A model generated the notes under the pieces. The model made no database searches. It was given only the letters and a program-made list of their open reading frames with translations, and had not been told where the DNA came from. A program made the position numbers and the translations under genes. A DNA stretch of 36,139 bases from Candidatus Woesearchaeota archaeon (lineage in GTDB: Archaea; Nanobdellota; Nanobdellia; Woesearchaeales; B72-G16). The stretch's first letter is position 1. Each line of letters begins with the position of its first letter. Positions 3,985 through 24,942 of the stretch are shown one piece after another. The stretch spans positions 1 through 36,139 of the forward strand of contig QMQO01000011.1 of the NCBI GenBank assembly GCA_003650545.1, written 5' to 3'.

Positions 3985-6900
3985 CTTACCACTTTAAATT
4001 CCCAACACCTTTGGCCTAAATCGTATTCAATTAGTTCTCCAGTGCTGTACATTAATTCCACACAAACCCTATATCTGCCAGGTTCATTTATCCTTACATT
4101 TTCCTGGTTAAATATTTGGTCTAATTTAACTAAGCTATTTTCTGGTACAGTTATATCCCTATTGGAAATGACATTTAGGTAGTTTGTCCATTGTGCACCT
4201 TGTTGTTTTTGAATTTTTATGTTTATCTTTCCTGAAAACCTATTTGTTCCAAGATTTTCTATTTTTGATTGTGGTCTATGAGCATAAAAACCAGAATGTT
4301 GGTTATCGTGCTGGAATATTGGCCAGTCTAAAGTTTCAGATTTTCCAAGTTCCCACGCATACACATAACCATCGCTTGCAGTAGCAATGATATCCAGCTT
4401 ATTGTTATAATCTATGTCAGCGAAATTTACTGATTTTACACCAGGCCAACCCATGCCTCTATAATAAGGCATGGTGTATTTTGGAAATCCTTCCATCACC
4501 ATTCCGTTATCGTCTAATAAGAAAATAGAATTTCCTCCACAGAACAATCCACAATATCCATGATCACCGAGTGTCCCAAACAATATTTCTGACTTACCAT
4601 CATTATCAACATCAGCTGCAGCTAATGTTGAGGTAGAATATTGCCACCAAATACCCGCAGAATCTCTCACAGGATTGAACACGTCTGTTTTATAGGGCCA
4701 TCCATCTACCACGGTTCCATCATGATTAAGGACATAAACAAGCGGAGGACTGTTTTTACGCCAGTAAGAAGGAATCCACATTGGGGATAATGTTAGTACA
4801 ACTTCTTTATAAGGGTCATCATCAACATTTGCTATTAATATATTAGTAACTTCATTATAATTAATGATATTAGCTGGTGGCCAGCCTTCCATTAAGCTGC
4901 CATCATGGTGATAAGCTATCACTTCGTCTGACTTAGGAGCAAATATTATTTCTAAGTCGCCATCATTATCCAAATCTCCAATGACTGGCTGAGAAACTCC
5001 AAAGAAAGGACCCCATGAAGAAATAGATGTTTCATTTGACCACAATAATTGTGCTTTATTGTTAAGAACTAAAATTCCTTTTTTTCCATTATTATTAGAG
5101 TAAGTTGCAATAATCTCATTTAATCCGTCATAGTTGATGTCACCAATTGCAATTCCATAAATAATTGCATGTTCTATATCTTCTGGACCTTCAAAAAGAT
5201 AAGGCCAACCCTGCATAACTGTCCCATCACTATGAACCACAGTAACTAATGGTTTGTAGAAATAACCCATCACTATTTCCTGCCCAGGATAATCAGGATC
5301 AATGTCTCCAATGGATAAAATATTCAAAGAACAACCGCCTTCAGGAGGTTTATATTTATCAGATTTATAAGAAAGTCCTGGTAATGAATTTCCTGCGACA
5401 TCAAAACCATAAATCCCCCAACTACGTCCTAATGTCAAGATTTCATTTTTCCCGTCATTGTTGATATCGGATATTGCTGAAGGAATTTTGTAATTTGATA
5501 TTGTAAGACTTTTTGGCCAACCTTCTCTTATTGTCCCATCAGCGTGCATTAAAGAGAGTCTCCTACCTATTTTGTCACCTATCTGGACCAAATAATCAAG
5601 TATTATCTCTTTGCCTTGATAATCTTCATCAATATCTGCAATTGTAGCTTTCACATATGTTGCTGTTATTTTACTCTCTATTTTTTTAGGCCAACCTGGC
5701 TTAAGTGTTGAATCAATAGTTACAGTTATTTGTTCTGTACTAATCTTATCATCCTGATGAAACACCTTAAGTCTAATATCATATTCACCACTTTCAAGAT
5801 TCTGTGTATTCCATGTAGCAAACAAACCCTCTGATAAACCTGTCAGTGAAATTCCATCGGATGACCAAGACTCTAAACCACTTCTAGAAAATTCTATAAC
5901 ATAGCTATTATAATCTCTTCTAATATAACCTTCTATTTCCACATTTTTATAAGGACCAAAAATCGAGCCTTCTCTTGGACTTGTTATTTTAATGTTATCT
6001 ATCTCAATCATAGCTTTATCTTCTATGACTTTTCCAGTAGTTGTGGTAAGTGTAAGCTTGATTGTATGATAACCATCTGAAAACTGTGTTGTATCAAAAC
6101 TATCTATCAAAATATTATTTGATGGAAAAACATTTGAATCTTTTATTAATACCCAATCAGACGGATTTCTTCCTTCACCTATTTCAATGTTATATTTTTG
6201 AAAATTTTTGCTAGATAAAGTTCCTTTTATTTGAACTGTTTCACTTATTCTTGAAACAGGGATGTCTATAAATGCAAACAAAGAAGGATCTTCAATCTCA
6301 AATACAGACTCGACATCAATAAGACCATGCCCTTGTTTTATTGATAAATCTCCAATGTAATTTGCAGATCTCATCAGAGCATTTTTTATATCATTTGGAC
6401 TCCAGTCAGGATGCACGTCTTTAACTAAAGCTGCAACACCTGCAACATGCGGAGCTGCCATTGATGTTCCTGAAATTGCCATATGCTTGCTATCAACGCA
6501 CCGATGTACATCTGGTCTAGCAGGGTCAAAATAATTATCATCAATCCCAAATGCAGTATCCCATTGTGCAGCACAAATCTCAACCCCTGGTGCAACAACA
6601 TCGGGTTTTATCAAACTTAAGCCATCAATGTCCCAAACAGGGCCTGTTGAACTGAAGCAAGGTATTTGGTCTATTTGCGTGTCAGTATCTATGCAAGAGC
6701 TATAACTCAAAGTCTCAAAATTACTCTTATAAGTTGCTCCGACAGTTATTGCTTTTCTTGCTGTCCCGGGACTACATATTGTTTCTATATCCGGGCCTGA
6801 GTTTCCAGCTGCAACTACTACAACCACACCTGCATCAACTGCGTTATCAACAGCAGTGCTTTCAGGATCATCTGGGCCACATTCGTCACTAGGAAATCCC

Positions 6901-8639
6901 TTGCAATAAGATCCTAAACTCATACTTATGATGTCAACATGATCAGAAAAATCTCCATCTTGATTAGGGTCAACTGCTCTCTCAATCGCTGCAATTATTG
7001 CGTTCATATTGCCAGTTCCATAGGCATTTAATGTTTTATAAGCATATATCTTTGCTTGAGGTGCAACTCCTTTCAACGTACCTTGGCCAGCAGCTATTGC
7101 TGCACAATGAGTGCCATGTCCGTTATCATCCATAGGATCTGAGTCTCCATTCACAAAATCGTAACCGTCTACAACTTTACAACCAGCCCCCATACAACCA
7201 CCAAGATCAGGATGATGATAATCCACACCAGTATCAATTACTGCAATCGTAATGTCTTTTCCTGTATAACCAAGACTCCAGCTATAATCAGCATTAATGT
7301 GCGGAACAGAACCCATTAAAGTTGCCTTAACCTCTAAATTTGGATAAACATCTTTTACCTCTCTTAACTTTTTGATTTCCTTAGCCTCCTCTCTAGTTAT
7401 GTCAAGAGCTAAACCATTAAACACCTTTTCATATTCTCCAAAAACCACAAGGGTGTTTCCTTGTTCCGAAAGATCTGCAACAGCACTACCAGTCACTAAG
7501 GTTTCTACTTTAGCCTTCTTTAATTTTTTTCTTATTTTATCCTTTATCTTTTGCCTATCTGACATTATTTGTTTTTTTTGTTTAGCAAGTTTTTTTGGAA
7601 CATCCTCACTTGAAGTTGCAAATATCTTGTAAACATATTTAATAGGGTTATAATCACTCATCGCTTCTATCTTTTGCTCATTCTTTTCAGCCAGTTTTTT
7701 TAATGAGACTTCTTTTTTAAGTAACGGTTCTCTTTTAAGTTCTACAATATAACCTTTTGGAGGCTGGACCTCGGGCAATGTTTCACCCAAAATGGCTACA
7801 GCTTCTTGTCCAGTTTCTTCACCATAATACATTTCAGGTGCAATGATTGACTCTTTTTGAAAGTTTGGCGTTACAGTCAACTCTGACCAGTTCCCTAAAT
7901 TTAACTTGCCTGGCTTCTCATAGAAAGTACCGTTAACATTATCTTCAGTATTTTTGTCTGGAGGATCGGTTAGTTTAATCTGTTCGTCTATAGAATACCT
8001 GTCCTTTAATGTTGCTATGAATACTCTTAATCCAGCCCCAAAGCATCCATCCAATAGTTCAACATCACTAATTAGCTCAGGAGAACAAAGTTGGTAACAT
8101 CCATACTTCTGTGCAAACTCAACGTAACAACTATCACGAGTATAACTATCTTTTATAAAGGTACAACCCCAAACGTAATTCAAAACATTCTCACAAATAT
8201 CTGCTACATAAGGAGCTGCTAATGTCTCCCTTTTATAACAAGCATCTTTCTCAGATTCTGGAACCACAGATTCACAAGTCCTATGAACATAGTTATAATA
8301 AGTGCAATCCTGTGGACAGATAGAATAATCCTCGTCTAGATCACACCTCTCATTCCCACACCAAGCACAATACTTCTCAGCACAATTTTTATAACTCAAA
8401 TCTGTTATTAGCCAGCCAGCATCCTGACATTGCTTTACTGTTTTAATGCTGCATTCATTAGTATCGTTGCTTGCAACTGTTGCTGGATCAAACTTAGTAC
8501 AACAAATATGACAATCAGGGCATGATTTAATACAATCCTTCTCAGCACCAGTACAAGGAGGCATCTCTTTAAATTCAACACAACCTGTAACTAGTATAGC
8601 AATTACAACAACAATCGCAATTAAATATTTTATTCGCAT
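3981..8639 (-). CDS. Lipoprotein S8 (subtilisin-family) serine protease with I9-like propeptide, Ig-like domains and FG-GAP/VCBS-type repeats
   Basis: Lipobox LVTG-C; catalytic motifs AVIDTGVD, HGTHCA, AAGNSG, SGTSMAAPHVAG; propeptide EYEKVFNGLAL; repeated GWP... and [A/G]D[I/L/V]DxDGxxEI units; Cys-rich N-terminus. Confidence 0.93.
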   Translation of the reverse strand: MRIKYLIAIVVVIAILVTGCVEFKEMPPCTGAEKDCIKSCPDCHICCTKFDPATVASNDTNECSIKTVKQCQDAGWLITDLSYKNCAEKYCAWCGNERCDLDEDYSICPQDCTYYNYVHRTCESVVPESEKDACYKRETLAAPYVADICENVLNYVWGCTFIKDSYTRDSCYVEFAQKYGCYQLCSPELISDVELLDGCFGAGLRVFIATLKDRYSIDEQIKLTDPPDKNTEDNVNGTFYEKPGKLNLGNWSELTVTPNFQKESIIAPEMYYGEETGQEAVAILGETLPEVQPPKGYIVELKREPLLKKEVSLKKLAEKNEQKIEAMSDYNPIKYVYKIFATSSEDVPKKLAKQKKQIMSDRQKIKDKIRKKLKKAKVETLVTGSAVADLSEQGNTLVVFGEYEKVFNGLALDITREEAKEIKKLREVKDVYPNLEVKATLMGSVPHINADYSWSLGYTGKDITIAVIDTGVDYHHPDLGGCMGAGCKVVDGYDFVNGDSDPMDDNGHGTHCAAIAAGQGTLKGVAPQAKIYAYKTLNAYGTGNMNAIIAAIERAVDPNQDGDFSDHVDIISMSLGSYCKGFPSDECGPDDPESTAVDNAVDAGVVVVVAAGNSGPDIETICSPGTARKAITVGATYKSNFETLSYSSCIDTDTQIDQIPCFSSTGPVWDIDGLSLIKPDVVAPGVEICAAQWDTAFGIDDNYFDPARPDVHRCVDSKHMAISGTSMAAPHVAGVAALVKDVHPDWSPNDIKNALMRSANYIGDLSIKQGHGLIDVESVFEIEDPSLFAFIDIPVSRISETVQIKGTLSSKNFQKYNIEIGEGRNPSDWVLIKDSNVFPSNNILIDSFDTTQFSDGYHTIKLTLTTTTGKVIEDKAMIEIDNIKITSPREGSIFGPYKNVEIEGYIRRDYNSYVIEFSRSGLESWSSDGISLTGLSEGLFATWNTQNLESGEYDIRLKVFHQDDKISTEQITVTIDSTLKPGWPKKIESKITATYVKATIADIDEDYQGKEIILDYLVQIGDKIGRRLSLMHADGTIREGWPKSLTISNYKIPSAISDINNDGKNEILTLGRSWGIYGFDVAGNSLPGLSYKSDKYKPPEGGCSLNILSIGDIDPDYPGQEIVMGYFYKPLVTVVHSDGTVMQGWPYLFEGPEDIEHAIIYGIAIGDINYDGLNEIIATYSNNNGKKGILVLNNKAQLLWSNETSISSWGPFFGVSQPVIGDLDNDGDLEIIFAPKSDEVIAYHHDGSLMEGWPPANIINYNEVTNILIANVDDDPYKEVVLTLSPMWIPSYWRKNSPPLVYVLNHDGTVVDGWPYKTDVFNPVRDSAGIWWQYSTSTLAAADVDNDGKSEILFGTLGDHGYCGLFCGGNSIFLLDDNGMVMEGFPKYTMPYYRGMGWPGVKSVNFADIDYNNKLDIIATASDGYVYAWELGKSETLDWPIFQHDNQHSGFYAHRPQSKIENLGTNRFSGKINIKIQKQQGAQWTNYLNVISNRDITVPENSLVKLDQIFNQENVRINEPGRYRVCVELMYSTGELIEYDLGQRCWEFKVVS

Positions 8640-10531
8640 TTTCTGAAATAATAGCCCTCAAAATTTTCCTTACATAAAAACGTTCCTGCAACAGGATCTG
8701 TTTTCTCTATTCGAATATATAAATAATCCTGATACTCGTTAACAGTATATGTATGGTCAGTCCAACCATCAACCGTTTTAACATTAAGCCCAGCTGCAAG
8801 ATCGCTTAACTGCAACAAGCTACCATCAGGCAACACTCTTGAAATACCATAATAAAGATAATTGTCATCATAGCCAGAAATAGATTGCGCTTCTTCAGGA
8901 TTAACATAGTTACAAAAATAATATGTACAAAGCAGACACACCCCTCCAATACAACTATAGCTTTGACCTTGTGGATCAGAGCCACACTCTACATCTGTTT
9001 GGCAGTTCTCTCCATGCATATCTTTGCAAGGAACTTTATCTGCACAATCTTGATCAGCGCAGTCTATAGCACCATCACAGTCGTCGTCTATATAATTATC
9101 ACAAATCTCTGCTACACCAGGATTAACAGCAGCAGTATTATCATCACAATCTGTATTATCATCTATATAACCAGCAGGTGCATCGCACGCCCTATTGCTT
9201 GCATCCGGATTACCATAATTATCTCCATCAGCATCTTCGTATGCTAGCGTTACACAGTCTACATTACAACTTGTTACACTGTCGTCACAATCGTTTCCTA
9301 AAGCACAGCCAAGACCATACCCATCACCATCACTATCCTGGCAGATTACAGCACAAGCAGCATCACCAGTGCAATCTGGATCGTCACAATCAACATCACC
9401 GTCGCAATCTTCGTCTATGTTGCCAATGCAAATCTCTGTTGGTGCAGCTACCCAATGACAGCCATCACACCTTTGCCCATCATATGGAATTCTACATTCT
9501 GTGCCAGAACACTCACAGGCAATACAAAAGCTACTACAATCGCTATCACCACAATCTGTTGATTCATCACAATCATTATCCTTACCATCGTCACAAACTT
9601 CTGCAACAGGCACCACAGCACCCTCACACTTACTCCATTTCCCTCCTGAACAAGTCTGGGTTCCCTTGCTACATTCGCCAATATCACTTCCACAGCTGCG
9701 CGTCTCTCCTTCATTCTCACAGCTTCCGAAATGGGTGAAGTCTTCTTCATCATTCACATAAGAAAATAACCCATAATAACTACCCTTCATCCCTTCACTC
9801 ACCCACTTATTAAAATAAAACCTTTCAAAAAAGTTAGGACCATATCCAGAGAAACTATAAGTTCCATTGGCTTTCATATCATCTATAAAACCTTCTCTAA
9901 CAGAATCTGCTACCTTTACGTTCAAATTCTTATTTATAACAAAACCCTCATGATCGACATAAAACTCACCACCTAGATGATTGCTGAATGTCCTGTCGGT
10001 AATACCGTTCATCACAAACATAGGATCCTTTATCCCAAATATCGACATGTATGTTGTAATATTGACATGCCTTGGCTCGTATTTGATATCAGAACTATCT
10101 AAACTGTAGTTAACCTCAACATCTATCTTTACAGACATAGAATTATTCAGATCTACATAAAGCTTGTTCTTCAATATCTCAAAATTTACTTCGACACCAA
10201 GAGGAATTCTAAATTCACTCAGTTTGGTTTCATAGTTGCCGATGCATTTAGAAATATTAGACTTTGCAAAATACAACATTTGAGATTCATTTTTAAACTG
10301 CGTATAAGCAATTGTATTAAAACTCTTAAAAGCACACATCCTAGTAACAGTAGCTGTATAATCTTTCATGTTAGCTATCAGATTATTCAAGCTAGCAACC
10401 TTGGTTTTTAGTACAGGAACTTCTGTTGCATATGGTTGGCTTGCCTGCATAGCTAAAAAGGCTATTATCAATAATGCAACTATAAAGATTGCTACAAGAC
10501 TAAAAAACACTGCTTTCTTGCTCAATGCCAT
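8630..10531 (-). CDS. Class III signal-peptide (pilin-like) protein with C-terminal Cys/Asp-rich MopE-like repeats; putative adhesin
   Basis: N-terminus SKKA-VFFSLVAIFIVALLII; repeats EVCDDGKDNDCD, EICIGNIDEDCDG, DSDGDGYG, DADGDNYG, DCDDNTAAVNPGVAEICDNYIDDDCDG; overlaps both neighbours. Confidence 0.85.
   Translation of the reverse strand: MALSKKAVFFSLVAIFIVALLIIAFLAMQASQPYATEVPVLKTKVASLNNLIANMKDYTATVTRMCAFKSFNTIAYTQFKNESQMLYFAKSNISKCIGNYETKLSEFRIPLGVEVNFEILKNKLYVDLNNSMSVKIDVEVNYSLDSSDIKYEPRHVNITTYMSIFGIKDPMFVMNGITDRTFSNHLGGEFYVDHEGFVINKNLNVKVADSVREGFIDDMKANGTYSFSGYGPNFFERFYFNKWVSEGMKGSYYGLFSYVNDEEDFTHFGSCENEGETRSCGSDIGECSKGTQTCSGGKWSKCEGAVVPVAEVCDDGKDNDCDESTDCGDSDCSSFCIACECSGTECRIPYDGQRCDGCHWVAAPTEICIGNIDEDCDGDVDCDDPDCTGDAACAVICQDSDGDGYGLGCALGNDCDDSVTSCNVDCVTLAYEDADGDNYGNPDASNRACDAPAGYIDDNTDCDDNTAAVNPGVAEICDNYIDDDCDGAIDCADQDCADKVPCKDMHGENCQTDVECGSDPQGQSYSCIGGVCLLCTYYFCNYVNPEEAQSISGYDDNYLYYGISRVLPDGSLLQLSDLAAGLNVKTVDGWTDHTYTVNEYQDYLYIRIEKTDPVAGTFLCKENFEGYYFRKCE
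9321..9477. repeat. Copy A of a 157-bp direct repeat (copy B at 13019-13175)
   Basis: Manual ungapped alignment shows 11 mismatches in 157 bp. Confidence 0.9.
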
Positions 10532-11040
10532 ACCTTTACCTCCACCTTATATGGTCCCCAAATTCTGTCCCCCTTTACACCAAACACATGCAACTCTGTG
10601 TTTGTTGCAGTGGTTGCTTTTACCAATGTTAGTTCAGGGTTAACAGGTGGTGGCTGGCTATAGATAATTGTATCATTTATCTCAATCTGTATTCCATAGT
10701 TCTTTGGAAGGCCTACTTTTGCTAGGCTCTTTGAAATGTTCCCCGCTAGCGTTAACTCACCTGCTTCATATAACTCACCCATAATCTCTATGGCAGTCAT
10801 CGCTCCCAATCGTGCATAATCATAATCAGCATAATCTATTATACCTTGAATCTTCGATACGTCTGCAATTTTGTTATAAGGAGTTCTAGTATAAAGATCC
10901 AACAAATCCTGTGAAAAAAACTGTGTTTGCTGTGTAGGCGCTCTACCAACAAACGCAGACAATATCACAATAAAGCCTGCTACTATTATCACTAATGCAA
11001 TTATAGCATCCATCGTAAAAAAATAGCCTTTTTTTTTCAT
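10522..11040 (-). CDS. Class III signal-peptide (pilin-like) protein
   Basis: MKKKG-YFFTMDAIIALVIIVAGFIVIL: basic leader, G at -1, hydrophobic helix. Confidence 0.85.
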   Translation of the reverse strand: MKKKGYFFTMDAIIALVIIVAGFIVILSAFVGRAPTQQTQFFSQDLLDLYTRTPYNKIADVSKIQGIIDYADYDYARLGAMTAIEIMGELYEAGELTLAGNISKSLAKVGLPKNYGIQIEINDTIIYSQPPPVNPELTLVKATTATNTELHVFGVKGDRIWGPYKVEVKVWH

Positions 11041-11052
11041 GTTAGTATATCA

Positions 11053-11571
11053 TCATGTTGTTGCTAGCTTTTCACAGCCAGCATTAAGTTCATCTCTTCT
11101 TTCCAGAGGAATATCGTTTATGTTTTTTATTACCTTAGAACAGCAAGGCACTGCCCCACCATCTTCAGCACTAACAGTTACTCCTGGTCCGCCATAGCAG
11201 AACACACGAGTTCCTGCTTTTAGCTCTGAAAGACTACCATTACTCTCTCTAAAATAAATCACAAAATCGTTTCTTAAGCCGAGTTCTCTTTTAACTAGCT
11301 CATAATCTTTCTCTATCAGTGCAGACAACTTCTTCTGATCGATCTGATTATTCACTATGAATGTGTATGGATCTTCTACTTCTGTAGCTTCAGTTGCTAC
11401 AAACCTATCTGCCAAACCAGAACTTTCTGTATCTAGGCTTTGTACCTTCTCACGGGTTCCACCTGTCCCTCTGCCAAATATCACTACCAAAGTAATTGTT
11501 ATAACCACGCCAAATACAATAAATGCTGTTAGAAGATCAAAGCTAAACTGCTGTGCTTTTTTATATTTCAC
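11053..11571 (-). CDS. Class III signal-peptide (pilin-like) protein
   Basis: GTG start with AGGTG RBS; KKA-QQFSFDLLTAFIVFGVVI. Confidence 0.85.
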   Translation of the reverse strand: MKYKKAQQFSFDLLTAFIVFGVVITITLVVIFGRGTGGTREKVQSLDTESSGLADRFVATEATEVEDPYTFIVNNQIDQKKLSALIEKDYELVKRELGLRNDFVIYFRESNGSLSELKAGTRVFCYGGPGVTVSAEDGGAVPCCSKVIKNINDIPLERRDELNAGCEKLATT

Positions 11572-11697
11572 TTTGCACCTCTTTCGTCCAAGAAAAGAAT
11601 CTATAGTTTATAAAGGTTTTGAAAAAGGAAAATGGATAAAGATAGACAAAAATCTAAAAAAATATTTTATTATTATTTTTTTCTCGTCTGAAGAAGA

Positions 11698-12132
11698 TCA
11701 AGGATTTATTTTCACAATATTTTTTACTTTCTTTATGATATTTTCACCTAGTTTCAAATCACCATTAATCAAACCAGAAATAATTTTAACCTCATCATAG
11801 ATTTCATCGTCATATTGGAGAACAAGTTCTGCCACTTCATCATTTATTATATCAAGCTTCACACTGTATTTTTTTCCATTAAGATTTGCAGGCAACATAA
11901 ATGTCCTAACATATCCATCTTCTGCACCAGCCGCAACATCCAACTCTTGTTTAATATACTCTCCAAGGTCTCTTAGAGCAAGTCTATCCCTTTCTTGTGA
12001 AAATTCAACAAACCTAATAGTAAATATCCCTATAATAGCTACAAAAATGAGCATCATCACACCAATCAACATAAGAAATTCTAAAGATGATTGGGATTTT
12101 TTTAACAGTTCCATCTTTTTTACAGGCAACAT
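11698..12132 (-). CDS. Class III signal-peptide (pilin-like) protein; start may be 12114
   Basis: KKS-QSSLEFLMLIGVMMLIFVAII with E at +5; DGYVRTFMLPANLNG. Confidence 0.85.
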   Translation of the reverse strand: MLPVKKMELLKKSQSSLEFLMLIGVMMLIFVAIIGIFTIRFVEFSQERDRLALRDLGEYIKQELDVAAGAEDGYVRTFMLPANLNGKKYSVKLDIINDEVAELVLQYDDEIYDEVKIISGLINGDLKLGENIIKKVKNIVKINP

Positions 12133-12271
12133 TTTATTCGTAAATAATTTAGTATATAATAATTTAGTATAATTATATAGTTTTTGGTTTTCTGTTTAGA
12201 CTATGTTAGTCAATCCGCCAGCTCTTCTGAAAGGAAAGATTAATAAATATTTATTCTTAACCTATAATTAT

Positions 12272-12391
12272 GATTGCATGAAACCTCGCGGTTTTATATT
12301 CCCCGCAGGAAATATAAAACGTTGAGGTGATAAAACATGCAATATGTAGGTTTAGACGTACATAAAAAATTCACCGCGAGGTTTCATAGAT
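12272..12391 (+). mobile_element. Miniature, internally deleted IS110/IS1111-like element
   Basis: Perfect 15-bp inverted repeats ATGAAACCTCGCGGT (12278-12292) and ACCGCGAGGTTTCAT (12373-12387); RBS GAGGTGA plus MQYVGLDVHKK, matching the IS110 DEDD transposase N-terminus; GAT on both flanks (12272-12274, 12389-12391). Confidence 0.75.
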
Positions 12392-12948
12392 GGCAGAAGT
12401 TAAAATTTTTTGAAGGATATACAAGTGCAGATAAACCTGGCAAAAAAGAAACTACCTGCCCTACAATAACTTTGGTTAGAGACAAAAACTTTTTAATTGT
12501 TGTTGACCCTGGTGTTTTAGAAAGCCAAAATATTTTAGTTGATACATTAAAGAGAGAAGGCCTATCATTAGAAGATATAAATATAGTTTTCATAACACAT
12601 TCGCATATAGATCACTACAGAAATACAGGAATGTTTCCTAACGCAAAAGTAATTGAATATTATGGAGTGTGGGATAAAAACGAGGTGGAAGATAGGCAAA
12701 ATCAGCTTACTGAAGATATTAAAATTATAGAAACACCTGGACACAACTATACTAGTCTTACCCTCTTGGTCAAAACAGATATAGGGATCATAGCAATATG
12801 TGGAGATGTCTTTTGGAAAGAAAATTATCCTGAAATAGATAAGTATGCTGATGATCCTGAAAAATTAAAAAAAACCAGAAAAAATCTCTTAGAAATTTCA
12901 GATTATATAATTCCAAGTCATGCAGGTATGTTTAAAGTTAAAAAATAA
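12337..12948 (+). CDS. Small MBL-fold metallo-hydrolase with a chimeric IS-derived N-terminus (possibly a pseudogene)
   Basis: IVVDPG, THSHIDH, TPGH, CGD, IIPSH motifs. The probable native start (ATG 12390, MAEVKI) is out of frame with the body. Confidence 0.75.
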   Translation: MQYVGLDVHKKFTARFHRWQKLKFFEGYTSADKPGKKETTCPTITLVRDKNFLIVVDPGVLESQNILVDTLKREGLSLEDINIVFITHSHIDHYRNTGMFPNAKVIEYYGVWDKNEVEDRQNQLTEDIKIIETPGHNYTSLTLLVKTDIGIIAICGDVFWKENYPEIDKYADDPEKLKKTRKNLLEISDYIIPSHAGMFKVKK

Positions 12949-13014
12949 CCCTTTAATAGTCCTTTCAGCTTGTCGGCTGGAATTCTTTAGGCTTCTTACG
13001 AAACCTCGCTATTT

Positions 13015-13258
13015 TCAACCATCACCATCACTATCCTGGCAGATTACAGTACAAGCAACATCACCAGTGCAATCTGGATCGTCACAATCAACATCACCGT
13101 TGCAATCTTCATCTATGTAACCAGTGCAAATCTCTGCTTGTGCAACTACCCAATGACAGCCATCACACCCTTGCCACAGTTCTGACTTTGTGTTAAACCT
13201 TTCATCTACAGAACCAGAGCCATTTGCAATCATTGTCTACGTTATTGCAGCTCTCTGC
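13015..13258 (-). pseudogene. Frameshifted fragment of a Cys-rich MopE-like repeat gene
   Basis: Reads AESCNNVDNDC/NGSGSVDE/GLTQSQNCGKGV across two single-base frameshifts, then joins a copy of 9321-9477; no signal peptide; truncated at about 13018. Confidence 0.75.
13019..13175. repeat. Copy B of the 157-bp direct repeat
   Basis: 146/157 identical to 9321-9477 by manual alignment. Confidence 0.9.
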
Positions 13259-16200
13259 TTTTGCTTTATTGCATTAGAAACCAAAATTATGTCACCAACA
13301 TCACAAACCTCGCCATTCTTATTGAAATCAAGATCATCATTGTTACACTTTACTAAAACATTAACATCGAACTTGTCAACATTAGTATCGCCATTCAAAT
13401 CGTATGTTTCAACAGCTCTAAGAACTTTTGCAATATCTCCTGAGTCACATAAGATATCATTCTTATTAAAATTAACATCGCGATTGTTACAGCTTGTCAT
13501 TGCTTTGATATCATAATCAGTAAATTTACCATCTCCATCTACATCTGCTTTAAGTCTTGTAATTGAAGTTAAATCTCCTATATCACAAACTTGGCCGTTC
13601 TTATTTAAGTCTAAATCTTTTACATTACACTTGGATACTATGTTGACATCCAACTGATTTATTTTGCCATCTTTATTCAGATCATATATTTCTATCTCAC
13701 TATTCAGCTTGGTGATATCACCGATATCACACAACTCTTTATTCTGGTTAATATCTGTGTTATGAACATTACAGTTACTCATAGCTTTTATATCGTACTT
13801 TGTTAATTTACCATCTCCGTCTACATCTGCTTTTATTTTAGTAACAGATTTTTCAACACAAATAGACCTCTTAAAGATAAGCCAACCTTGTTTAACAACC
13901 TCACACCTATCCAGAGGACACTCCTTTGCAGAATATTCACCACATGAAGCTTCAACACAAGCACCATTCTTACAAGTATAACCACTGGGACATTTAACAT
14001 AAGGAGAAACAATTACACTACCCTCGCATACTCCTTCTACAACACCTTCGCCTGTGTCTGAGCAACCTTCAAATTTGTTTTCAGAGATCTGTGTAATGCA
14101 ACAATCTGCACGTTCAATAATTTTCTTACAGCTCTCGTCTCGACATCCTCTAGTTATTCCTTTTACATAAATGTTTTTTCCATTATCCGTGTCAATGCAG
14201 ACATTCTTGTCCATGCAAACATTTTTCTTAAAAATCCAACCTTTCTTAGCTACTTGACATCTTTCTAATGGGCAATCCTCTACAGAATACTCTTTGCAAG
14301 GTGTTACCACCATTGCTGTTGATATTTTCGGTCTTTCTAATGTTCCAGTCACATAAACTCTATTATAACCCTCAATTTTACTCAACATACCTCTTGCTAT
14401 AACTCTTGCAGCAACCCTTAACATTTGTTCGTCATTTGAGAGCACAAATAAATCGTATTTACCTTTATCTTTGTCTACCTGTGAAAGTTCTATTATCGCT
14501 GTCTTAAACATTGCTTTAGGAATCTGGTTACATTTGAAATGGTTCCTTACTAGTATATTTGTATCGCAATTACCGAATATAATTAAGTTGATATCGTTGT
14601 AACTATCACCAACCTCTGTGTCAAACTTAGAAAAACTTACAGTAGACCCTTTAGGCATCAAAGATGTAGAAACATCAGTCATTGCAATAGTGTGACTGGC
14701 TGGCGCATTCACACCAACAACAAGCCGAGAATTCATCTCTCTGCCAATGACAAATGGTTCTGGAAAATCATTTAACAAATACTCCTTTGGCTTGCAATCT
14801 TCAGGACAATTGCATCTATTTTCTCCTTTTCCGCATACGCCATCCCCACACTTAATACAAACAATGCAAGGAGTTATTGGAGTTACACATGTTTCTCCGA
14901 CTGGTCTTGAGCAATTCATCTGTTTTAGGCCAGGACAACATTCCTTCTGGAAAAGTTTCATAGGTATTATTTGTGTTTCTTCTTTCTCAGCATCTAATTC
15001 TTCTTCTGCCTTTAATGTTGCGTAAACCTCTTCGCCTTCTATTGCGCAAGGTATACAACATTTTTCAGATTCTCCACCAGGACAATCATAAGGCCCTATA
15101 CTCATGTAGCCTTCGTTGCATCTCTTTTTCCAATAAGTACAGTAACCTCTTTTTAACGCAACACAATTAGGCTCAACTGAAACTGGTTTATTTCCCACCA
15201 GACATAGTTTTACAGAATCTCTCTCAGCCACATCTGTATTTAGAACTATAAAATCTACCTTAATTATTAAACCCAAGCCAGTATCAACTGCACTTTTTTC
15301 TCTTAACCAGAAATTCTTACCATTCACACTTAAACCAACTTTACCACCAGTAGTAACCACACTAACACTGACATCAAATTTTCGTCCATCAACAACGAAA
15401 GTCTTCATTTGACCTTCTTTTACATCACTCCTAATATCACAGTAAGCATCTGGAATACCAAGCACATTATTCCTCCCTAAGTAAACATCATGACTTATGC
15501 CGGCTAGCACAAGTGTAGCCTTTCCTAAAGTGCCAGTACCTATCAAAGGTTTATACATTATCTCTATAATTTCTCCTGTATTCACCACCTTGAATTCAAG
15601 TGTTCTGCTGTCTGTATCTATATCTCTATATTCAATGATGTAAACATCACCAGAGACAGCTCCCTTAGGAGCCCTTAACATGAAATATTCATCTTGTTCT
15701 ATATCATAAATAATTTTTTCTTCCCTAACACAAGCACCATTCTTACATTTACAGTTGTAAATCACTTCTTTAATAGTGTTATTTTCGCAAAAATATTCAG
15801 TCACTGCTCCACAAAAAGTTTCGCAGACCTCTCCTGGTATACAAAGTCCTGTACAATGTACACAACTGTCTGTTTTCTGCTCTCTATCAGATATAACAGT
15901 CCCCCTCACATAATAATTCAAACCACCGTCACTATCATTACATTCCATAGGCAGAGGTAAAGGTTTGCATTTTTCCCGCTTTAACAACTCTCCTGTTTTA
16001 TTATAATACCATCCTTCGGCTTTTGTGCCTACATATTTACATACAGGTGTGCCTTTTCTTGGATTATAGCACAGAAGACCACCGCCAATCATCCCTGGCA
16101 TGCTAAACCCTTTTAAACCTCTACAGCAACCATATCCATACTTTTGAGAAACTTCTTTACTTGTGTATTCGCCTTCTTTTGCACATCTACAGTCCTGCGG

Positions 16201-16641
16201 ACAGTTATGAGCGCTTTCTGTCAGAGCATCGCAAACACCATTACCACATTTAGATGTGCAGATTCCCATTGTACCAATCAGATTTGGATCCTTTGGAGGG
16301 ATCATAGTCAACCCAGAGCAACAAGGAGGAGCTTCTGGCACTAGAGGAACAGTGCCACCTTCTCTAATGCATTCTTGAGGCAAAATGACACCTCCTTCTT
16401 TTATCCACGCCTCTATCACCTTACATGGTTTTTTATATCTCTGGTATAGATTTTCTTCTGAATAATATCGAGAGATTAAATCATTTAACTTGTTTATATC
16501 TCCATTTTCAAGATAATCAAGTGCTTGCTTTTTCATCGTTTTTTCATCGATGCAATAATAAGCAGAAACCAGATTGACTAATGCAAGAAGTGTTACTAGA
16601 ACTACTAAAAACACTACGATTCTTCCAAACCTCTTTTTCAT
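13237..16641 (-). CDS. Large secreted Cys-rich surface protein with an S-layer-like segment and four C-terminal dockerin/EF-hand-like modules
   Basis: Signal peptide; CxxEG...CCxGL, CGxGVC...NCPxDC and CxDxDxGxNxYVxG repeats; LNDFPEPFV...LVVGVNAPASHTIA segment; DVDGDGK/DLNKDGK/DLNGDTN loops; own TATA (TTTATATA, 16664-16671) about 23 bp upstream. Confidence 0.85.
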   Translation of the reverse strand: MKKRFGRIVVFLVVLVTLLALVNLVSAYYCIDEKTMKKQALDYLENGDINKLNDLISRYYSEENLYQRYKKPCKVIEAWIKEGGVILPQECIREGGTVPLVPEAPPCCSGLTMIPPKDPNLIGTMGICTSKCGNGVCDALTESAHNCPQDCRCAKEGEYTSKEVSQKYGYGCCRGLKGFSMPGMIGGGLLCYNPRKGTPVCKYVGTKAEGWYYNKTGELLKREKCKPLPLPMECNDSDGGLNYYVRGTVISDREQKTDSCVHCTGLCIPGEVCETFCGAVTEYFCENNTIKEVIYNCKCKNGACVREEKIIYDIEQDEYFMLRAPKGAVSGDVYIIEYRDIDTDSRTLEFKVVNTGEIIEIMYKPLIGTGTLGKATLVLAGISHDVYLGRNNVLGIPDAYCDIRSDVKEGQMKTFVVDGRKFDVSVSVVTTGGKVGLSVNGKNFWLREKSAVDTGLGLIIKVDFIVLNTDVAERDSVKLCLVGNKPVSVEPNCVALKRGYCTYWKKRCNEGYMSIGPYDCPGGESEKCCIPCAIEGEEVYATLKAEEELDAEKEETQIIPMKLFQKECCPGLKQMNCSRPVGETCVTPITPCIVCIKCGDGVCGKGENRCNCPEDCKPKEYLLNDFPEPFVIGREMNSRLVVGVNAPASHTIAMTDVSTSLMPKGSTVSFSKFDTEVGDSYNDINLIIFGNCDTNILVRNHFKCNQIPKAMFKTAIIELSQVDKDKGKYDLFVLSNDEQMLRVAARVIARGMLSKIEGYNRVYVTGTLERPKISTAMVVTPCKEYSVEDCPLERCQVAKKGWIFKKNVCMDKNVCIDTDNGKNIYVKGITRGCRDESCKKIIERADCCITQISENKFEGCSDTGEGVVEGVCEGSVIVSPYVKCPSGYTCKNGACVEASCGEYSAKECPLDRCEVVKQGWLIFKRSICVEKSVTKIKADVDGDGKLTKYDIKAMSNCNVHNTDINQNKELCDIGDITKLNSEIEIYDLNKDGKINQLDVNIVSKCNVKDLDLNKNGQVCDIGDLTSITRLKADVDGDGKFTDYDIKAMTSCNNRDVNFNKNDILCDSGDIAKVLRAVETYDLNGDTNVDKFDVNVLVKCNNDDLDFNKNGEVCDVGDIILVSNAIKQKQRAAIT

Positions 16642-16837
16642 TAAATGAGAAATGTTTTTTTTATATATAAATATTACCTAAAATCTAAATGAAAAATTTA
16701 AATGTAACACATTTTACACTCGCAAAAATAATTATCTAATACAGATGTCAATGTTCTTAAACTAAACTTGGAATTTACTTGAACATAAGCTATCTTTCTG
16801 AAAGCTACTTAAAACTAATTAAAAGAATTTATTGTAT

Positions 16838-17431
16838 TTATCCACAACAGAAGCCATAAGAATTACAACAACTAGATTTAAAACCCGGCATCACATTTTC
16901 CATAACATCACAATAACTTCCTTCGGCTGTGCTACATTGCTCATAACTATAACCAACACCCGGCATGTCTGTCAATAAAACAAAATCTCTATCGCCACTC
17001 TTTGTTACCAAAACCTGTAATTTTTTGCTACCTGCTAAAAAATCACTTGAAATCAATTCGTCCATTGGTACATTCTTAAGTAAAAAAACTCTCTCGCTCA
17101 GGTCATTGAAAGTAAAGACTATCTCAGAATTTATACAGGTTTTAACATCACCAAGACTACCATTGTTATTGTAGCAAAAAACAGAAATATCCATCAAGTT
17201 ATCTGGAAGATCAGCATCTATCGTAATCCTAGAATCTTCACCTTGAAAATAAACCAAGTTGGCATTCTCTTGTATGGCTCTACCAACGATATTTATTCTC
17301 TCTTGACTTATTTGCTTTTGTGAACGCTGGCTAACAGAGATAAACAAACCAAACGCAGATACAATGATTAGCATTGCAAAACCAACTGTTAGCAGATAAT
17401 CCATTGCAGCCTGTGCTTTTCTATGTTTCAT
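16838..17431 (-). CDS. Class III signal-peptide (pilin-like) protein with Cys-rich tail
   Basis: MKHRKA-QAAMDYLLTVGFAMLIIV; VYFQGEDSRITI; ends CCNSYGFCCG. Confidence 0.85.
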   Translation of the reverse strand: MKHRKAQAAMDYLLTVGFAMLIIVSAFGLFISVSQRSQKQISQERINIVGRAIQENANLVYFQGEDSRITIDADLPDNLMDISVFCYNNNGSLGDVKTCINSEIVFTFNDLSERVFLLKNVPMDELISSDFLAGSKKLQVLVTKSGDRDFVLLTDMPGVGYSYEQCSTAEGSYCDVMENVMPGFKSSCCNSYGFCCG

Positions 17432-17432
17432 T

Positions 17433-17885
17433 TTAACTAGAATGTGTTCTTAGATTTCCAACAATTCTGTGGCTTGAACCTGTGAGCGTAATCTTATAAT
17501 CTATGATAAGATCACCATCTAAAACATCACCCTTTTTTATGGTGTCATCGCATGTTACAATTAAACTTCCTGTTTCACTATTTGGGATTACAAGCGCTTC
17601 TGATATTCCTGTGCAATCAAACTCAGCACCATCAACACTAACATTTACTATCTCTATCTCATAGCCCAAACCATTGTAGAACAACAAGGTCAGTTGTGTT
17701 TCCCCATCTGAAGATACAAGACTGGTTCCTTCACATCTGAAATCACTACTAACCTCGCAACGCTCAGGAACAAAACCACTAAAGTCTACAAATGCTAGTA
17801 TAACGCCAATAATAGCTGTAATAACAAGTATTGCCCAACCATATGTAAGCAAGAATTCCATTGCTGCTTGTGCTTTCTTCTTCAA
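17433..17885 (-). CDS. Type IV pilin-like protein (class III signal peptide)
   Basis: Probable TTG start at 17885 after an AAGGTGA RBS; KKKA-QAAMEFLLTYGWAILV. Confidence 0.88.
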   Translation of the reverse strand: MKKKAQAAMEFLLTYGWAILVITAIIGVILAFVDFSGFVPERCEVSSDFRCEGTSLVSSDGETQLTLLFYNGLGYEIEIVNVSVDGAEFDCTGISEALVIPNSETGSLIVTCDDTIKKGDVLDGDLIIDYKITLTGSSHRIVGNLRTHSS

Positions 17886-17994
17886 AATATCACCTTCATA
17901 TTCACACTTAATCACAATTAGAACTAGTTTTATAAACATTTATTATCATTTAAAAGTAGAAAAGGAAAAATAAAACTTTGTAATTTATGGAACT

Positions 17995-18471
17995 CTAAGG
18001 AACTCTAAAGCGGGCAGTTCCTGTATCTCTTATATCAGTTTCTCCAAAGCCAGGGATTCTATATACTATTGTCAGTGATCCTAATACTGAGTCTCCTGAT
18101 TTAAGCTCTATTCCGCCGCTACAACTTCCAGACATGCTTGATCCCTCACCTGCTCTGAGAAGCCCTCCATCATAAAACAGATCGCATTCTATTCCTGCAA
18201 ATTCTGTGTCTGTGCTTGCAACAAACTTTCCACTCTGTGGTATAATACTTGTACTATATATATTCTTAAACAAGACAGTCACACCATTTACATCATCATA
18301 GCTAATATCAACGCAATCAACTTTGCCCCTAACATCACACACGTTTGGCGTAGAAATCCTCGGCATTATGTACAACAAGAAGACACTAATGATAGCCAGC
18401 ACAACTAGGATCGCCCAGCCATACGTAAGCAAGAACTCCATTGCAGTTTGAGCTTTTTTGCTCTTTCTCAT
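17995..18471 (-). CDS. Type IV pilin-like protein (class III signal peptide)
   Basis: GGAGGT RBS; KKA-QTAMEFLLTYGWAILVVL; paralogue of the adjacent pilin. Confidence 0.88.
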   Translation of the reverse strand: MRKSKKAQTAMEFLLTYGWAILVVLAIISVFLLYIMPRISTPNVCDVRGKVDCVDISYDDVNGVTVLFKNIYSTSIIPQSGKFVASTDTEFAGIECDLFYDGGLLRAGEGSSMSGSCSGGIELKSGDSVLGSLTIVYRIPGFGETDIRDTGTARFRVP

Positions 18472-18620
18472 AATTATCTACCTCCTTTTTTGACTATGAT
18501 TTAATGATGATATTACCATTAAATATTTAAATGTTTCTAAATTAGGTTAAGTAACAGCGACTATCATGTAATAGCCTGCTCATCGTTACCATTATAGCTT
18601 TTGGCTGTATTTTGTTGGAT

Positions 18621-18735
18621 ATAAGTATTATTAAGTATTACTAGTTATGTTAAGTATTATTAGTTATTAGTTTTTATGTTAAATTGGTTATGTTAATTTA
18701 AATTAGTTATGTTAATTGTTAAGTATTATTAGTTA
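18621..18735. repeat. Degenerate AT-rich tandem repeat tract
   Basis: Recurrent TAAGTATTA and (A/G)GTTATGTTAA units. Confidence 0.6.
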
Positions 18736-18801
18736 GGTGTTTTTGTTTTATATCAAATCTTTATGCCAAACCTAGACCATATCAATCTAGAATCTAGATA
18801 T

Positions 18802-21201
18802 CTAGATAAAACTAAATATCTTTGCAAAAAACTCTCTTAACCACTCTAAGATTCCTTTCTTGGATTTTTTCTTTACAATCTGCCTGGTTTGAGGAACCTT
18901 AGTAGGTCTTACCTTCTCAATAGCTGTTGAACTGGCTAAATATTTATTATCGTCGAACTCATAACTCAACAAAGCAACACCATAACCTTCCCCTTCATAG
19001 CTAAATATTTTTTTCTCTGCAAAGTTGATTGCAAATGAATATCTTTTGTCACCATCAATAAGCTCTACATTAGTAGCATTTCCTTGATTAAATACTTCGA
19101 TTGTTGTGTTGCCAGCTTCAATGGTCTTTGCGATCATTATGACAGGACCAGTGAGTTTTCCTTTAATAACATCTACATTCATTCTTCCAATCATGCCTGT
19201 ATGCTCTCTCAACAAAGTATCTAAATAACTAAAAACATTCTGTTTAAGTTCAAGCCTCCCTGATTTTTTAGGTCTCATAAGCACCTTAAATCTCTGTCTA
19301 GATCCTTTTGCAAGATTGTCTATCCTGTAGTCCTTTTCGCTATTAACCAGATCAAAGTCAGGTTGTAGTAAATCAATTACGATGTTATTAACAACACAAT
19401 CTCCTGTATTAGTTACTGTATACTCTACCTCTGTTAAGCTACCTTCTACAAATGGTCTAGTCACTCTCCGACTCACACTAAGCCTGGGATTTATCCCTTT
19501 CAAATTGAAAGAGCCCAGCTTTGTTATATTATAAAAATGATCGTCTGCAAAAAATGTTATTTGTGTGCTAATAGCATAATTCTTTATAGAAGCACTCATA
19601 GGTGCGTTCAATTTATATATATATACTGTCTTCTTCTGATTGCCATCGATGTGTGTCCTTGTTGATGTCTTCCCCTCGACCAGTTCAAATGCAGAGTCAT
19701 AGCTATCCATTATGTTAAGATCAGTGAACCTTCTATCTAGCATATTCTCTATCATTGTTCTTATTGTGATAGTTTTTCCTGGACTCAAAACACGAGGTTC
19801 AAAACTTCGAGAGATCTTAAATGCCTCATCTATTGGTATGACAGATACAGAGCTTGTCTTTGAAAACTGCAAGGTTTCTCCAGTTATAGTCTGATAGCTT
19901 CCTTCCATCTTTAAACTATAACTAGTCTTCTTGCTTACTTTAGGTGCCTTGAACTCGATATTAAGAGGGATCCTAGAACCTCCTTCAGAAATAACATCAA
20001 GCATAACAGGTTCAGCATCAAACAAACCAGAAGTAAAATTTACATTTATGTTATAGTATCTTGCAGCCTTATCTGGATTCTCAAGTATAGCCTTAACACT
20101 GCCCTTAAGACCACTACCCAAAACCTTATTTGAAAACTCAATAATGGGTTTTAACTTTTTGCTTTTAACAGTAAACACCTTCTTAACCTTATTGACAAAA
20201 TCTTCACCTTTAGAAGAATATTCAACCTCTAGTAGAATCTCATATCTGCCTAAGTAATTTCCTCGCAACTCTAGCTCAAAGTCTTTTTCATCATACTCGT
20301 CTAACAAAAAGCTTGTTGAGTACTGAGTTGGGTATCTAGCGTCTATTCTTCTAAATCCAGCACTATCCAACACAGACACTAATTTTGGAAGTGTAAGTTT
20401 CACACTCTTAACATCAACATCGCTATCAAGATTATTTATAATTTTCAAAAATAACTTAGACTTCTCCGTTATACCAACGCTTGCAGGAGACAAACTCATA
20501 TCAATCTTTAGCAAAGCTTCTGTCCTATACCAATTAGTGATAGTCAAGCTTCTCTCTGTGCTAGCATAAACATACCTTGTTTCAGCTTTCACCTTCGCAT
20601 CCAGCTCAGAGTCAACCCTGAAAGTGTATGTGAATGACATAGCCCTTCTTCCACCGATAGTTTTCTTCCACATCAATTTTCTGCCATATAAATAAGCACC
20701 ATTCGTGACTTCTACGATACTAATCCCCTCAGGCAAGATCTCTTCATATGTAACATCTGATGCAGCCTCTTCGCCTCTATTCTCTATAACAACTGTCGCT
20801 TTAACCTCATCCCCCACAAAGAGTTTTTTCTTATCTAACGTTCTTTCAACCTTAATCTTCGGCGCATAAGAGTAAACTACAAGCTTAAGCGCAGGGTAGC
20901 CTTTATTAGTTATAGGGTCTATTTTCAGGTCCTCTGGCGCATAAGATACATTAGTAAAGCAAAATCTGTACTGTCCATCAGGAGAGTCCTCACAGCTTCC
21001 GATATCAACAACAAAAGACTGTTCATCAAACAACACTATTTTTGTGTCATACTGATCTGTTGATATAGTATAGATATTATCGTCAATTTCAATTGTATCG
21101 TCTTTGTAAACCTTCCTGTCAAAAATTTTTTCATCTGCACAAGCAGCACAAACAAAAACCAACAATACATACAGAAACATTAACACATTTACTGTTTTCA
21201 T
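18802..21201 (-). CDS. Secreted multi-Ig-like (DUF11/BatD-like) protein
   Basis: Start at 21201 gives an ATGA overlap with the upstream stop and a signal peptide; repeated motifs such as VGDEVKATVVIENRGEEAASDVTYEEILP and VEYTVTNTGD; amphipathic C-terminus ILEWLREFFAKIF. Confidence 0.8.
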   Translation of the reverse strand: MKTVNVLMFLYVLLVFVCAACADEKIFDRKVYKDDTIEIDDNIYTISTDQYDTKIVLFDEQSFVVDIGSCEDSPDGQYRFCFTNVSYAPEDLKIDPITNKGYPALKLVVYSYAPKIKVERTLDKKKLFVGDEVKATVVIENRGEEAASDVTYEEILPEGISIVEVTNGAYLYGRKLMWKKTIGGRRAMSFTYTFRVDSELDAKVKAETRYVYASTERSLTITNWYRTEALLKIDMSLSPASVGITEKSKLFLKIINNLDSDVDVKSVKLTLPKLVSVLDSAGFRRIDARYPTQYSTSFLLDEYDEKDFELELRGNYLGRYEILLEVEYSSKGEDFVNKVKKVFTVKSKKLKPIIEFSNKVLGSGLKGSVKAILENPDKAARYYNINVNFTSGLFDAEPVMLDVISEGGSRIPLNIEFKAPKVSKKTSYSLKMEGSYQTITGETLQFSKTSSVSVIPIDEAFKISRSFEPRVLSPGKTITIRTMIENMLDRRFTDLNIMDSYDSAFELVEGKTSTRTHIDGNQKKTVYIYKLNAPMSASIKNYAISTQITFFADDHFYNITKLGSFNLKGINPRLSVSRRVTRPFVEGSLTEVEYTVTNTGDCVVNNIVIDLLQPDFDLVNSEKDYRIDNLAKGSRQRFKVLMRPKKSGRLELKQNVFSYLDTLLREHTGMIGRMNVDVIKGKLTGPVIMIAKTIEAGNTTIEVFNQGNATNVELIDGDKRYSFAINFAEKKIFSYEGEGYGVALLSYEFDDNKYLASSTAIEKVRPTKVPQTRQIVKKKSKKGILEWLREFFAKIFSFI

Positions 21202-23338: not shown

Positions 23339-23470
23339 CTATTTGTATAAACTTTTTCATGAATTTTTTCATTGTCAAGGAAAAATTTTTTTTTACTTTT
23401 TTTCTAATGAATGAGCTATTTTTGACACATATACGCCATGAGTAAACGCAGCTTTTTTTTGTAATAAAAA

Positions 23471-24934: not shown

Positions 24935-24942
24935 TTTAACAC

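Follow-up and report, generated by a model that had tools for sequence, protein, structure and literature searches.

What is the start of an insertion-sequence transposase doing in front of an archaeal metallo-β-lactamase (MBL)-fold gene, and what has become of that gene? The question arises on contig QMQO01000011.1 of a Candidatus Woesearchaeota archaeon (assembly GCA_003650545.1), of which a 36,139-bp stretch, here called the window, was analyzed. At its positions 12272–12389 a short element stands at the start of the MBL-fold gene, and a 203-codon open reading frame (ORF) runs from the element into the gene. We conclude that this element is very probably an internally deleted copy of an insertion sequence (IS) of the IS1111 group, which belongs to the IS110 family of RNA-guided DEDD recombinases.

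A perfect inverted repeat encloses a transposase start

The element spans G12272–G12389, 118 bp give or take 2 bp depending on the register chosen at its junctions (Table 1). It carries a perfect 15-bp subterminal inverted repeat, consisting of ATGAAACCTCGCGGT on the left (sTIR-L) and its exact reverse complement on the right (sTIR-R), with the two arms 80 nt apart. This is the sole perfect inverted repeat of at least 15 bp with a loop of at most 150 nt in the window, and when the window was simulated 100 times with a first-order Markov model, a single simulation gave any such repeat. The repeat exceeds what chance would give. Between the arms lie a predicted hairpin, a Shine-Dalgarno (SD) sequence and the ATG of an ORF that opens with MQYVGLDVHKKF. 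In the outer stem of the hairpin, ACCTCG from the inner part of sTIR-L pairs with TGAGGT, which includes the first bases of the SD. The left end folds with a z-score of −3.3 and the whole element with −4.5, and in each case none of 200 shuffles folded as well. A first-pass annotation, made from the sequence alone, had described 15-bp perfect repeats enclosing a hairpin, a ribosome-binding site and a transposase-like start, and the sequence reads as described, with 11 codons of the transposase present.

Elsewhere in the window, ACGAAACCTCGCTAT at 12998–13012 matches the left repeat at 12 of 15 positions. As a candidate second copy of the repeat it is probably a chance match, being one extra match against 0.34 expected per window once the two true arms and one self-overlap are set aside.

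Archaeal relatives point to the parent family

One genome per species, from 185,579 species, was scanned with degenerate codons for M-x-YVGLDVHKK. The scan yielded 24 loci, 21 bacterial and 3 archaeal. The exact start MQYVGLDVHKK is found at two of them, both archaeal: L017, from a Euryarchaeota metagenome-assembled genome (MAG), and L022, from a Nanobdellota MAG of the DPANN archaea. The bacterial loci, mostly from Acidobacteriota, begin with MYYV (16), MHYV (4) or MTYV (1), each then continuing GLDVHKK. All three elements (window, L017 and L022) carry the 9-nt block GATTGCATG unchanged, followed by a repeat arm containing CCTC. The block was not found in the 90 nt upstream of the third archaeal locus (L005, Methanoplasma, MRYVGLDVHKK) or of the 21 bacterial loci, and these were set aside as other lineages with unrelated left ends. 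The window and L022 have 13 nt in common at this position, TTATGATTGCATG, where L017 reads CTAGATTGCATG. Over the 11 codons, the window differs from L017 and from L022 at 5 of 33 nt each. All of these differences are synonymous, which is the mark of a coding sequence formerly under selection. The left end of L022 also folds strongly (z = −4.3), and its hairpin has the architecture seen in the window with a different inner-stem sequence.

L017 is a complete element of 1,245 bp, with a left end of 88 nt, a 338-residue transposase and a downstream non-coding region of 140 nt. The protein matches PF01548 (E 9e-28, residues 4–146 corresponding to PF01548 positions 1–152), PF02371 (E 1.5e-24) and the NCBIfam model NF033542, "IS110 family RNA-guided transposase" (269.6 bits, cut-off 140). 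Searched against the PDB, it matches the ISCro4 and IS621 recombinases (E 1e-15). The subterminal repeat of L017 is about 12 bp with one bulge. Its right end, TTTCACAG, and that of the window, TTTCATAG, have TTTCAYAG in common, with ...GGAGGCTTTCACAG of L017 aligning with ...GCGAGGTTTCATAG of the window. In L022 the contig stops 76 nt past the match and truncates the transposase gene; the 36 residues available match PF01548 at E 4e-4, weaker than the cut-off. In tblastn of the L017 transposase against the window, residues 1–11 alone match at E < 0.1. The first 20 and 30 residues of the window ORF matched no Pfam family even at E up to 10; such a peptide is too short for this null result to count against the family assignment.

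Derivation of the window element from an IS1111-group insertion sequence is thus supported by comparison of sequences. The first-pass annotation had proposed this IS110/IS1111 origin and pointed to a full-length parent as the thing to look for. The proposal is supported, in that an IS110-family transposase (PF01548, NF033542) carries homologous left and right ends in L017, and L022 has TTATGATTGCATG and the 11 residues in common with the window.

A region search with residues 1–60 of the L017 transposase found 6 close relatives only (82–100% identity), which add nothing on DPANN. Against plasmids, the best tblastn matches of this transposase were about 40% identical, haloarchaeal and rhizobial, with no named close relative, and the element itself had no blastn match. 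No Rfam family was found in L017, L022 or L005. A tRNA scan of the same three loci found no tRNA gene, which rules out that tRNA-like strings left of the L017 element are intact tRNA genes. In 8 of the 21 bacterial loci (L001, L004, L011, L014, L016, L019, L023 and L024) the transposase ORF is 24–252 residues long, against about 340, shortened by stops or frameshifts, which shows that decay of copies is frequent in that lineage as well.

The downstream region of L017 was also inspected. Here CTAGATTG and AGGAGC stand adjacent (reverse-complement coordinates 1313–1326) and are identical to the element's own left junction (CTA/GATTG, the slash marking the boundary) and right junction (AGGA/GC). 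This is the pattern expected of the guide segments of a seek/bridge RNA, and we regard it as a lead. The region folds no better than its shuffles (z = −0.6), and we therefore do not claim that it encodes a bridge RNA. Another occurrence of ATGATTGCAT, which matches the left terminus, lies about 135 bp past the right end of L017 (reverse-complement 1571–1580), inside an apparent minus-strand zinc-ribbon ORF.

A further pairing is predicted between the left terminus and the transposase start. ATTGCATG (12273–12280) is the exact complement of CATGCAAT (12336–12343), which lies across the start codon. L022 retains the pairing, as does L017 with one G-U pair. This pairing and the ACCTCG/TGAGGT stem would between them conceal the SD as well as the AUG in any transcript that enters from outside. 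In the fold-back inhibition of transposase translation in IS10 and IS50, element-end sequence in such a transcript pairs with the transposase ribosome-binding site and AUG, and the two pairings predicted in the window resemble this. Both partners face additional constraint, as recombination site and as coding sequence, and their conservation in L022 and L017 is thus no proof of an RNA role.

Fit to the IS1111 group and position of the junctions

In published accounts, IS1111-group elements have subterminal repeats of 7–17 bp, usually 11–13 bp, that are perfect or nearly so (PMC11187229, PMC11208160). Beyond the repeats, the left end extends by 7 (or 6) bp and the right end by 3 bp (PMC11187229). 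A short left end is combined with a longer non-coding region 3' of the transposase, which encodes the seek/bridge RNA (PMC11187229, PMC11208160). The perfect 15-bp repeat of the window lies within this range. The left extension, GATTGC, is 6 bp, or 7 bp with T12271, and fits the published 6–7 bp (PMC11187229). L017 likewise fits in its repeat and its left extension (GATTGC or GATTGCA). On the right, the extension is 1–4 nt by register, and the 3 bp given there as canonical would end the element at 12390 (PMC11187229). L017 has the group's arrangement of non-coding regions, with 140 nt downstream against 88 nt at the left end. The window further resembles group members such as ISEc11, ISKpn4, ISPa11 and IS4321/IS5075 in its short, asymmetric extensions, in the ribosome-binding site within a short left end and in a transposase start of the form YVG-x-D-V-H/S-K. 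It differs from them in that both its transposase and its RNA-encoding region have been lost. It also belongs to an archaeal lineage, whose transposase has its nearest annotated plasmid-borne IS110-family counterparts in haloarchaea, at only about 40% identity. There is no Rfam match, and a guide RNA in this lineage is putative.

The exact junctions depend on how the flanks are read. GAT lies on both sides of the element (12272–12274 and 12389–12391), and ATG flanks it equally well (12270–12272 and 12390–12392), which makes the junction register ambiguous. Three empty sites are possible: one with ATG shared (...AATTATGGCAG...), one with GAT shared (...AATTATGATGGCAG...) and one with no overlap (...AATTATATGGCAG...). 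The ATG-shared reconstruction agrees with the MA... start of the MBL homologues and with the 7 + 3 bp extension rule. The two junctions of L017 have AG or GA in common and nothing more. Members of the group insert site-specifically and in one orientation, with no duplicated target outside a shared core; here the one window copy and its two relatives occupy unrelated sites. The GAT that the first reading saw on both flanks is indeed present; as the core, it is one of three possible registers.

The MBL-fold gene is out of its native frame

A search of a 5.8-billion-protein collection with the MBL protein gave 970 matches, the best 120 of which were examined. These are 182–213 residues long, mostly 184–188, and cover at most 89% of the chimeric ORF. 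The window protein is 87% identical to homologue P0001 and belongs to a short, 186-residue form found in Woesearchaeota and bacteria of the Candidate Phyla Radiation. The H-x-H-x-D-H motif and the downstream metal ligands of Lactamase_B are kept, and no NCBIfam equivalog reaches its cut-off.

Eighteen homologues were aligned. Twelve start MAEVKI and the others MAEVKV, MAKVKV or MATVKI, with one MAAEVKI, so that 17 of the 18 fit MA[EKT]VK[IV]. None has an N-terminal extension, none natively begins MQYVGLDVHKK, and the first ~22 residues of the window ORF match none of them. A start of the homologue type, MA(A)[EKT]VK[IV], stands directly after the element, which places the insertion at the start codon. 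The position proposed at first pass therefore holds, the element lying within 0–3 nt of the native start codon and in the orientation of the MBL gene.

The same annotation had held that removing the element plus one GAT restores the gene. This is not the case: the native frame stops after 7 codons, and the MBL body lies in the frame of the transposase-remnant ATG at 12337. In the homologues, two codons (L/F, then V/I) separate the I codon from the conserved EGY; the window is 2 nt shorter there. Without the element, the body frame has a TGA immediately upstream and no ATG, GTG or TTG before EGY. If the gene is still in use, the frameshift thus postdates the insertion. The chimeric ORF is made up of 11 transposase residues, 7 residues read through sTIR-R, the 7 residues WQKLKFF from frameshifted native codons, and the MBL-fold body. 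A sequencing error in the T6 run is unlikely, since 59 A/T runs of at least 6 nt in eleven long ORFs (23.2 kb, up to 1,552 residues) carry no frameshift.

Upstream of the element, the AT-rich stretch at 12234–12249 is a putative promoter of the MBL gene, although BRE/TATA-like matches of this kind are common in AT-rich intergenic DNA. Archaeal TATA boxes sit about 26 nt ahead of the transcription start, and an mRNA from the empty site would be leaderless or near-leaderless. From the upstream ATG at 12270, the frame reads M-I-A-stop only. Within sTIR-R, the SD-like motif GAGGT (12378–12382) precedes the native ATG at 12390 by 7 nt; insertion alone would therefore have given the formerly leaderless-looking MBL gene an SD-like motif.

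Table 1. Coordinates of the element and of the start of the MBL-fold gene in the window.
Feature	Positions	Strand	Remarks
BRE/TATA-like AT-rich stretch, GAAAGA TTAATAAATA	12234–12249	+	~25 nt 5' of ATG 12270; read from sequence
Upstream ATG	12270–12272	+	Left copy of the ATG common to both junctions, or part of the left flank
Left terminal extension, GATTGC	12272–12277	+	Outside the inverted repeat; opens the 9-nt block GATTGCATG
sTIR-L, ATGAAACCTCGCGGT	12278–12292	+	From perfect-repeat search
Left-end hairpin	12283–12328	+	Outer stem ACCTCG/TGAGGT; inner stem 10–12 bp
SD of the former transposase gene, GAGGTGAT	12324–12331	+	5 nt before ATG 12337
First 11 codons of DEDD (IS110-family) transposase, MQYVGLDVHKK	12337–12369	+	Residues identical in L017 and L022
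Chimeric 203-residue ORF	12337–12948	+	PF00753 (Lactamase_B), E 2e-16
Probable deletion joint, AAAAAATTC	12364–12372	+	A-run of the K-K codons joined to the sequence just 5' of the right repeat
sTIR-R, ACCGCGAGGTTTCAT	12373–12387	+	Pairs with sTIR-L; right end TTTCAYAG also in L017
Right terminal extension, AG	12388–12389	+	Up to AGAT by junction register
Native MBL start, ATG GCA GAA GTT AAA ATT TTT TGA (MAEVKIF-stop)	12390–12413	+	7-codon dead end
T6 run marking the frameshift	12406–12411	+	4 nt (TTTT) between the I and E codons; A4T6 context

Probable origin by internal deletion and alternative explanations

The course of events that best explains these features begins with the insertion of a parent IS within 0–3 nt of the MBL start codon, in the orientation of the gene. 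This would have parted the start codon from its putative promoter. A later loss of about 1.1 kb would have removed nearly the whole transposase gene and the downstream non-coding region, the site of the bridge/seek RNA in this group. L017 has ATATAAAAAAAC directly 5' of its right repeat and the window joint falls in the A-run of the K-K codons, which suggests that the loss probably occurred by deletion between two A-runs. What remains is the whole left end (6-nt extension, 15-bp repeat, hairpin and SD), 11 codons and the last 17 bp of the right end (the repeat plus 2 nt). With the native frame broken 7 codons in, the body is in frame with the SD-led ATG of the remnant, and the chimera is the sole long ORF.

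Several points weigh against this account. Pfam does not score the 20- or 30-residue peptide, and the family assignment of the window copy thus depends on its relatives. A parent with identical ends was not found in the genome scan; L017 and L022 are relatives, and their left ends align with many differences outside GATTGCATG and the coding start. The insertion itself is read from protein N-termini, with a junction of ATG, GAT or no overlap, and the canonical right extension of 3 is given by one register only. The proposed A-run microhomology deletion leans on one distant relative, L017. Finally, the copy count is known for the window alone, which is compatible with a mobile transposable element of the miniature inverted-repeat type (MITE).

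The first-pass annotation had favored such an element, a non-autonomous mobile derivative that defines minimal donor ends. In that case a multi-copy 118-bp unit would be moved in trans by a full-length relative in the same genome, which would supply recombinase and bridge/seek RNA, and the window copy would record a real transposition. The unit is indeed short (118 bp), has 11 transposase codons and no transposase, and has ends homologous to those of L017 and L022; both ends and the perfect repeats are intact. Mobilization in trans is possible in principle, and the idea is not new. An engineered ISEc11 mini-IS that retains 84 bp of its left end and 71 bp of its right end is mobilized by transposase and seekRNA provided in trans (PMC11187229), and a 22-bp donor is enough for IS621 with its RNA in trans (PMC11208160). 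IS110-family MITE-like derivatives are likewise on record, namely MITEPpu9 of ISPpu9 (PMC12288879) and the ISNme5_IS110-like MITEs (PMC11602168). Against this, the window copy is the only one in 36 kb: the remaining repeat matches, with 3 mismatches, are no more than chance would give, further IS-related sequence is absent, and neither the repeat-match search nor tblastn of the L017 transposase revealed a second copy or a parent in the window. None of the 24 scanned loci is a mini copy, and the right end is kept over about 17 bp, far below the tested 71 bp. We consider a mobile MITE unlikely, and the first-pass claim goes further than a single copy allows. Lacking a transposase and room for a guide RNA, the stub cannot move by itself, and, only one copy having been seen, the simplest reading is a scar left by decay in place. 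A bolder version would make it a living, trans-mobilized mini-IS1111 of DPANN, guided to the AT-rich start-codon contexts of leaderless genes and acting as a mobile translation-initiation cassette. Its outward SD and ATG (and GAGGT) would turn each leaderless target into an SD-led gene or an N-terminal fusion, and the T-run frameshift would be an adaptive step locking the MBL gene onto the start of the element. We hold this to be very improbable.

Origin by decay in place has also to be set against readings in which no IS was deleted here. An assembler might have collapsed a full-length IS to a stub, or the T6 homopolymer might be misread and the native MBL frame intact. IS copies often confuse assemblies, as illustrated by L022, which ends at a contig edge, and by relatives of the L017 transposase on contigs of 1.2–1.5 kb, and the frameshift does fall in an A4T6 run. 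Such an artefact is nevertheless exceedingly improbable: the joint shares an 8–9-nt A-run only, which is too short for a graph assembler to jump, the length difference from the homologues is 2 nt and not 1, and the A/T runs of the long ORFs noted above are intact. The hairpins might instead form a native attenuator or riboswitch-like 5' untranslated region of the MBL gene, resembling a transposase start by chance. The strong fold of the whole element would suit such a leader, as would the Rfam search of 11900–12900, which returned sub-threshold matches only (19.7 and 17.9 bits, where the gathering scores are 100 and 35, respectively). We give this explanation hardly any credence, since in L017 a homologous left end, the 11 identical residues and a similar right end flank a bona fide IS110-family transposase, and the MBL homologues lack such an extension.

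Is the chimera functional?

A separate question, compatible with origin from a deleted IS and concerned only with its consequence, is whether the gene has been put back to use. Insertion may have cut the MBL start from a leaderless promoter, and loss of 2 nt from the T-run may then have brought the body into frame with the SD-led ATG, giving an N-terminally extended, active enzyme. We treat such an exaptation as a serious possibility that falls somewhat short of being our expectation. In its favor, the chimeric frame is open over the 53 nt between the two ATGs and over all 203 codons, and the body frame would have no start codon between its upstream TGA and EGY if the element were removed. All columns that are invariant in a 19-sequence alignment, including the metal-binding H-x-H-x-D-H, are kept in the window protein. 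AlphaFold2 predicts an intact MBL fold (mean pLDDT 80.6), in which LKFF (residues 22–25) replaces the first strand and residues 1–17 are disordered (pLDDT < 50). The host also uses SD-led starts, as SD-like 4-mers stand 5' of 10 of 24 long ORFs, against a background of 11%.

Other observations point the opposite way. We estimate at roughly 0.1 the chance that the frames match and the 17-codon bridge is open. In 13 of 14 outgroup comparisons the window protein shows slightly more divergence than the homologue nearest to it, and it carries a unique G to S change, adjoining a metal-binding His, in a column that is invariant in 18/18 homologues. In the predicted fold of the leader, the left repeat and left terminus pair with the SD and AUG. 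No second chimera was found among the best 120 of the 970 homologues. On balance, the chimeric 203-residue protein may be made and active, with the evidence tilting slightly the other way.

Genomic surroundings

Just 3' of the MBL gene, a 157-bp stretch (13019–13175) is 93% identical to 9321–9477, which is part of the gene for a 633-residue Cys-rich protein with MopE motifs (8630–10531). The stretch yields a truncated 72-residue minus-strand ORF (13015–13233) and looks like a recent partial duplication or pseudogene fragment. This fragment would place the MBL gene in a rearranged spot inside a minus-strand cluster (3981–12132 and 13237–27975). The cluster encodes small proteins with hydrophobic N-termini and no Pfam family (10522–12132 and 16838–18471), a 1,552-residue subtilase with FG-GAP repeats, a 1,134-residue dockerin-repeat protein, a DUF11/CARDB protein, two T2SSF-type membrane proteins and one T2SSE-type ATPase. 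From this gene content, it looks like a type IV pilus-like surface apparatus with giant secreted proteins, which is common in DPANN genomes.

Relation to known miniature elements and meaning

IS110-family MITEs and minimal donors have already been described, and the chimeric start alone is unusual here. MITEPpu9 (PMC12288879) and the ISNme5_IS110-like MITEs (PMC11602168) are small units with IS110-family ends and no transposase, as is the window element. They are multi-copy, and MITEPpu9 carries a small RNA gene; the window element has one known copy and carries a transposase start instead. The ISEc11 mini-IS (PMC11187229) and the 22-bp IS621 donor (PMC11208160) resemble it as ends whose enzyme and RNA act in trans. 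Both were shown to move. The window element retains about 98 bp on the left but only about 17 bp on the right, and it is not known to move. Minimal donor ends have been set by experiment, and this stub, whose mobility is hypothetical, does not define them. It is an ordinary kind of mobile-element scar, in an archaeon.

An IS1111-type lineage whose ends GATTGCATG...TTTCAYAG are conserved is documented here for DPANN and other uncultured archaea, and a family now used for programmable recombination thereby gains archaeal members. For annotation, the 203-residue ORF is a transposase-MBL chimera with a dead native start, and not a longer native isoform. Should the chimera be active, it would offer a compact illustration of gene rescue through translation signals that a decayed mobile element left behind.

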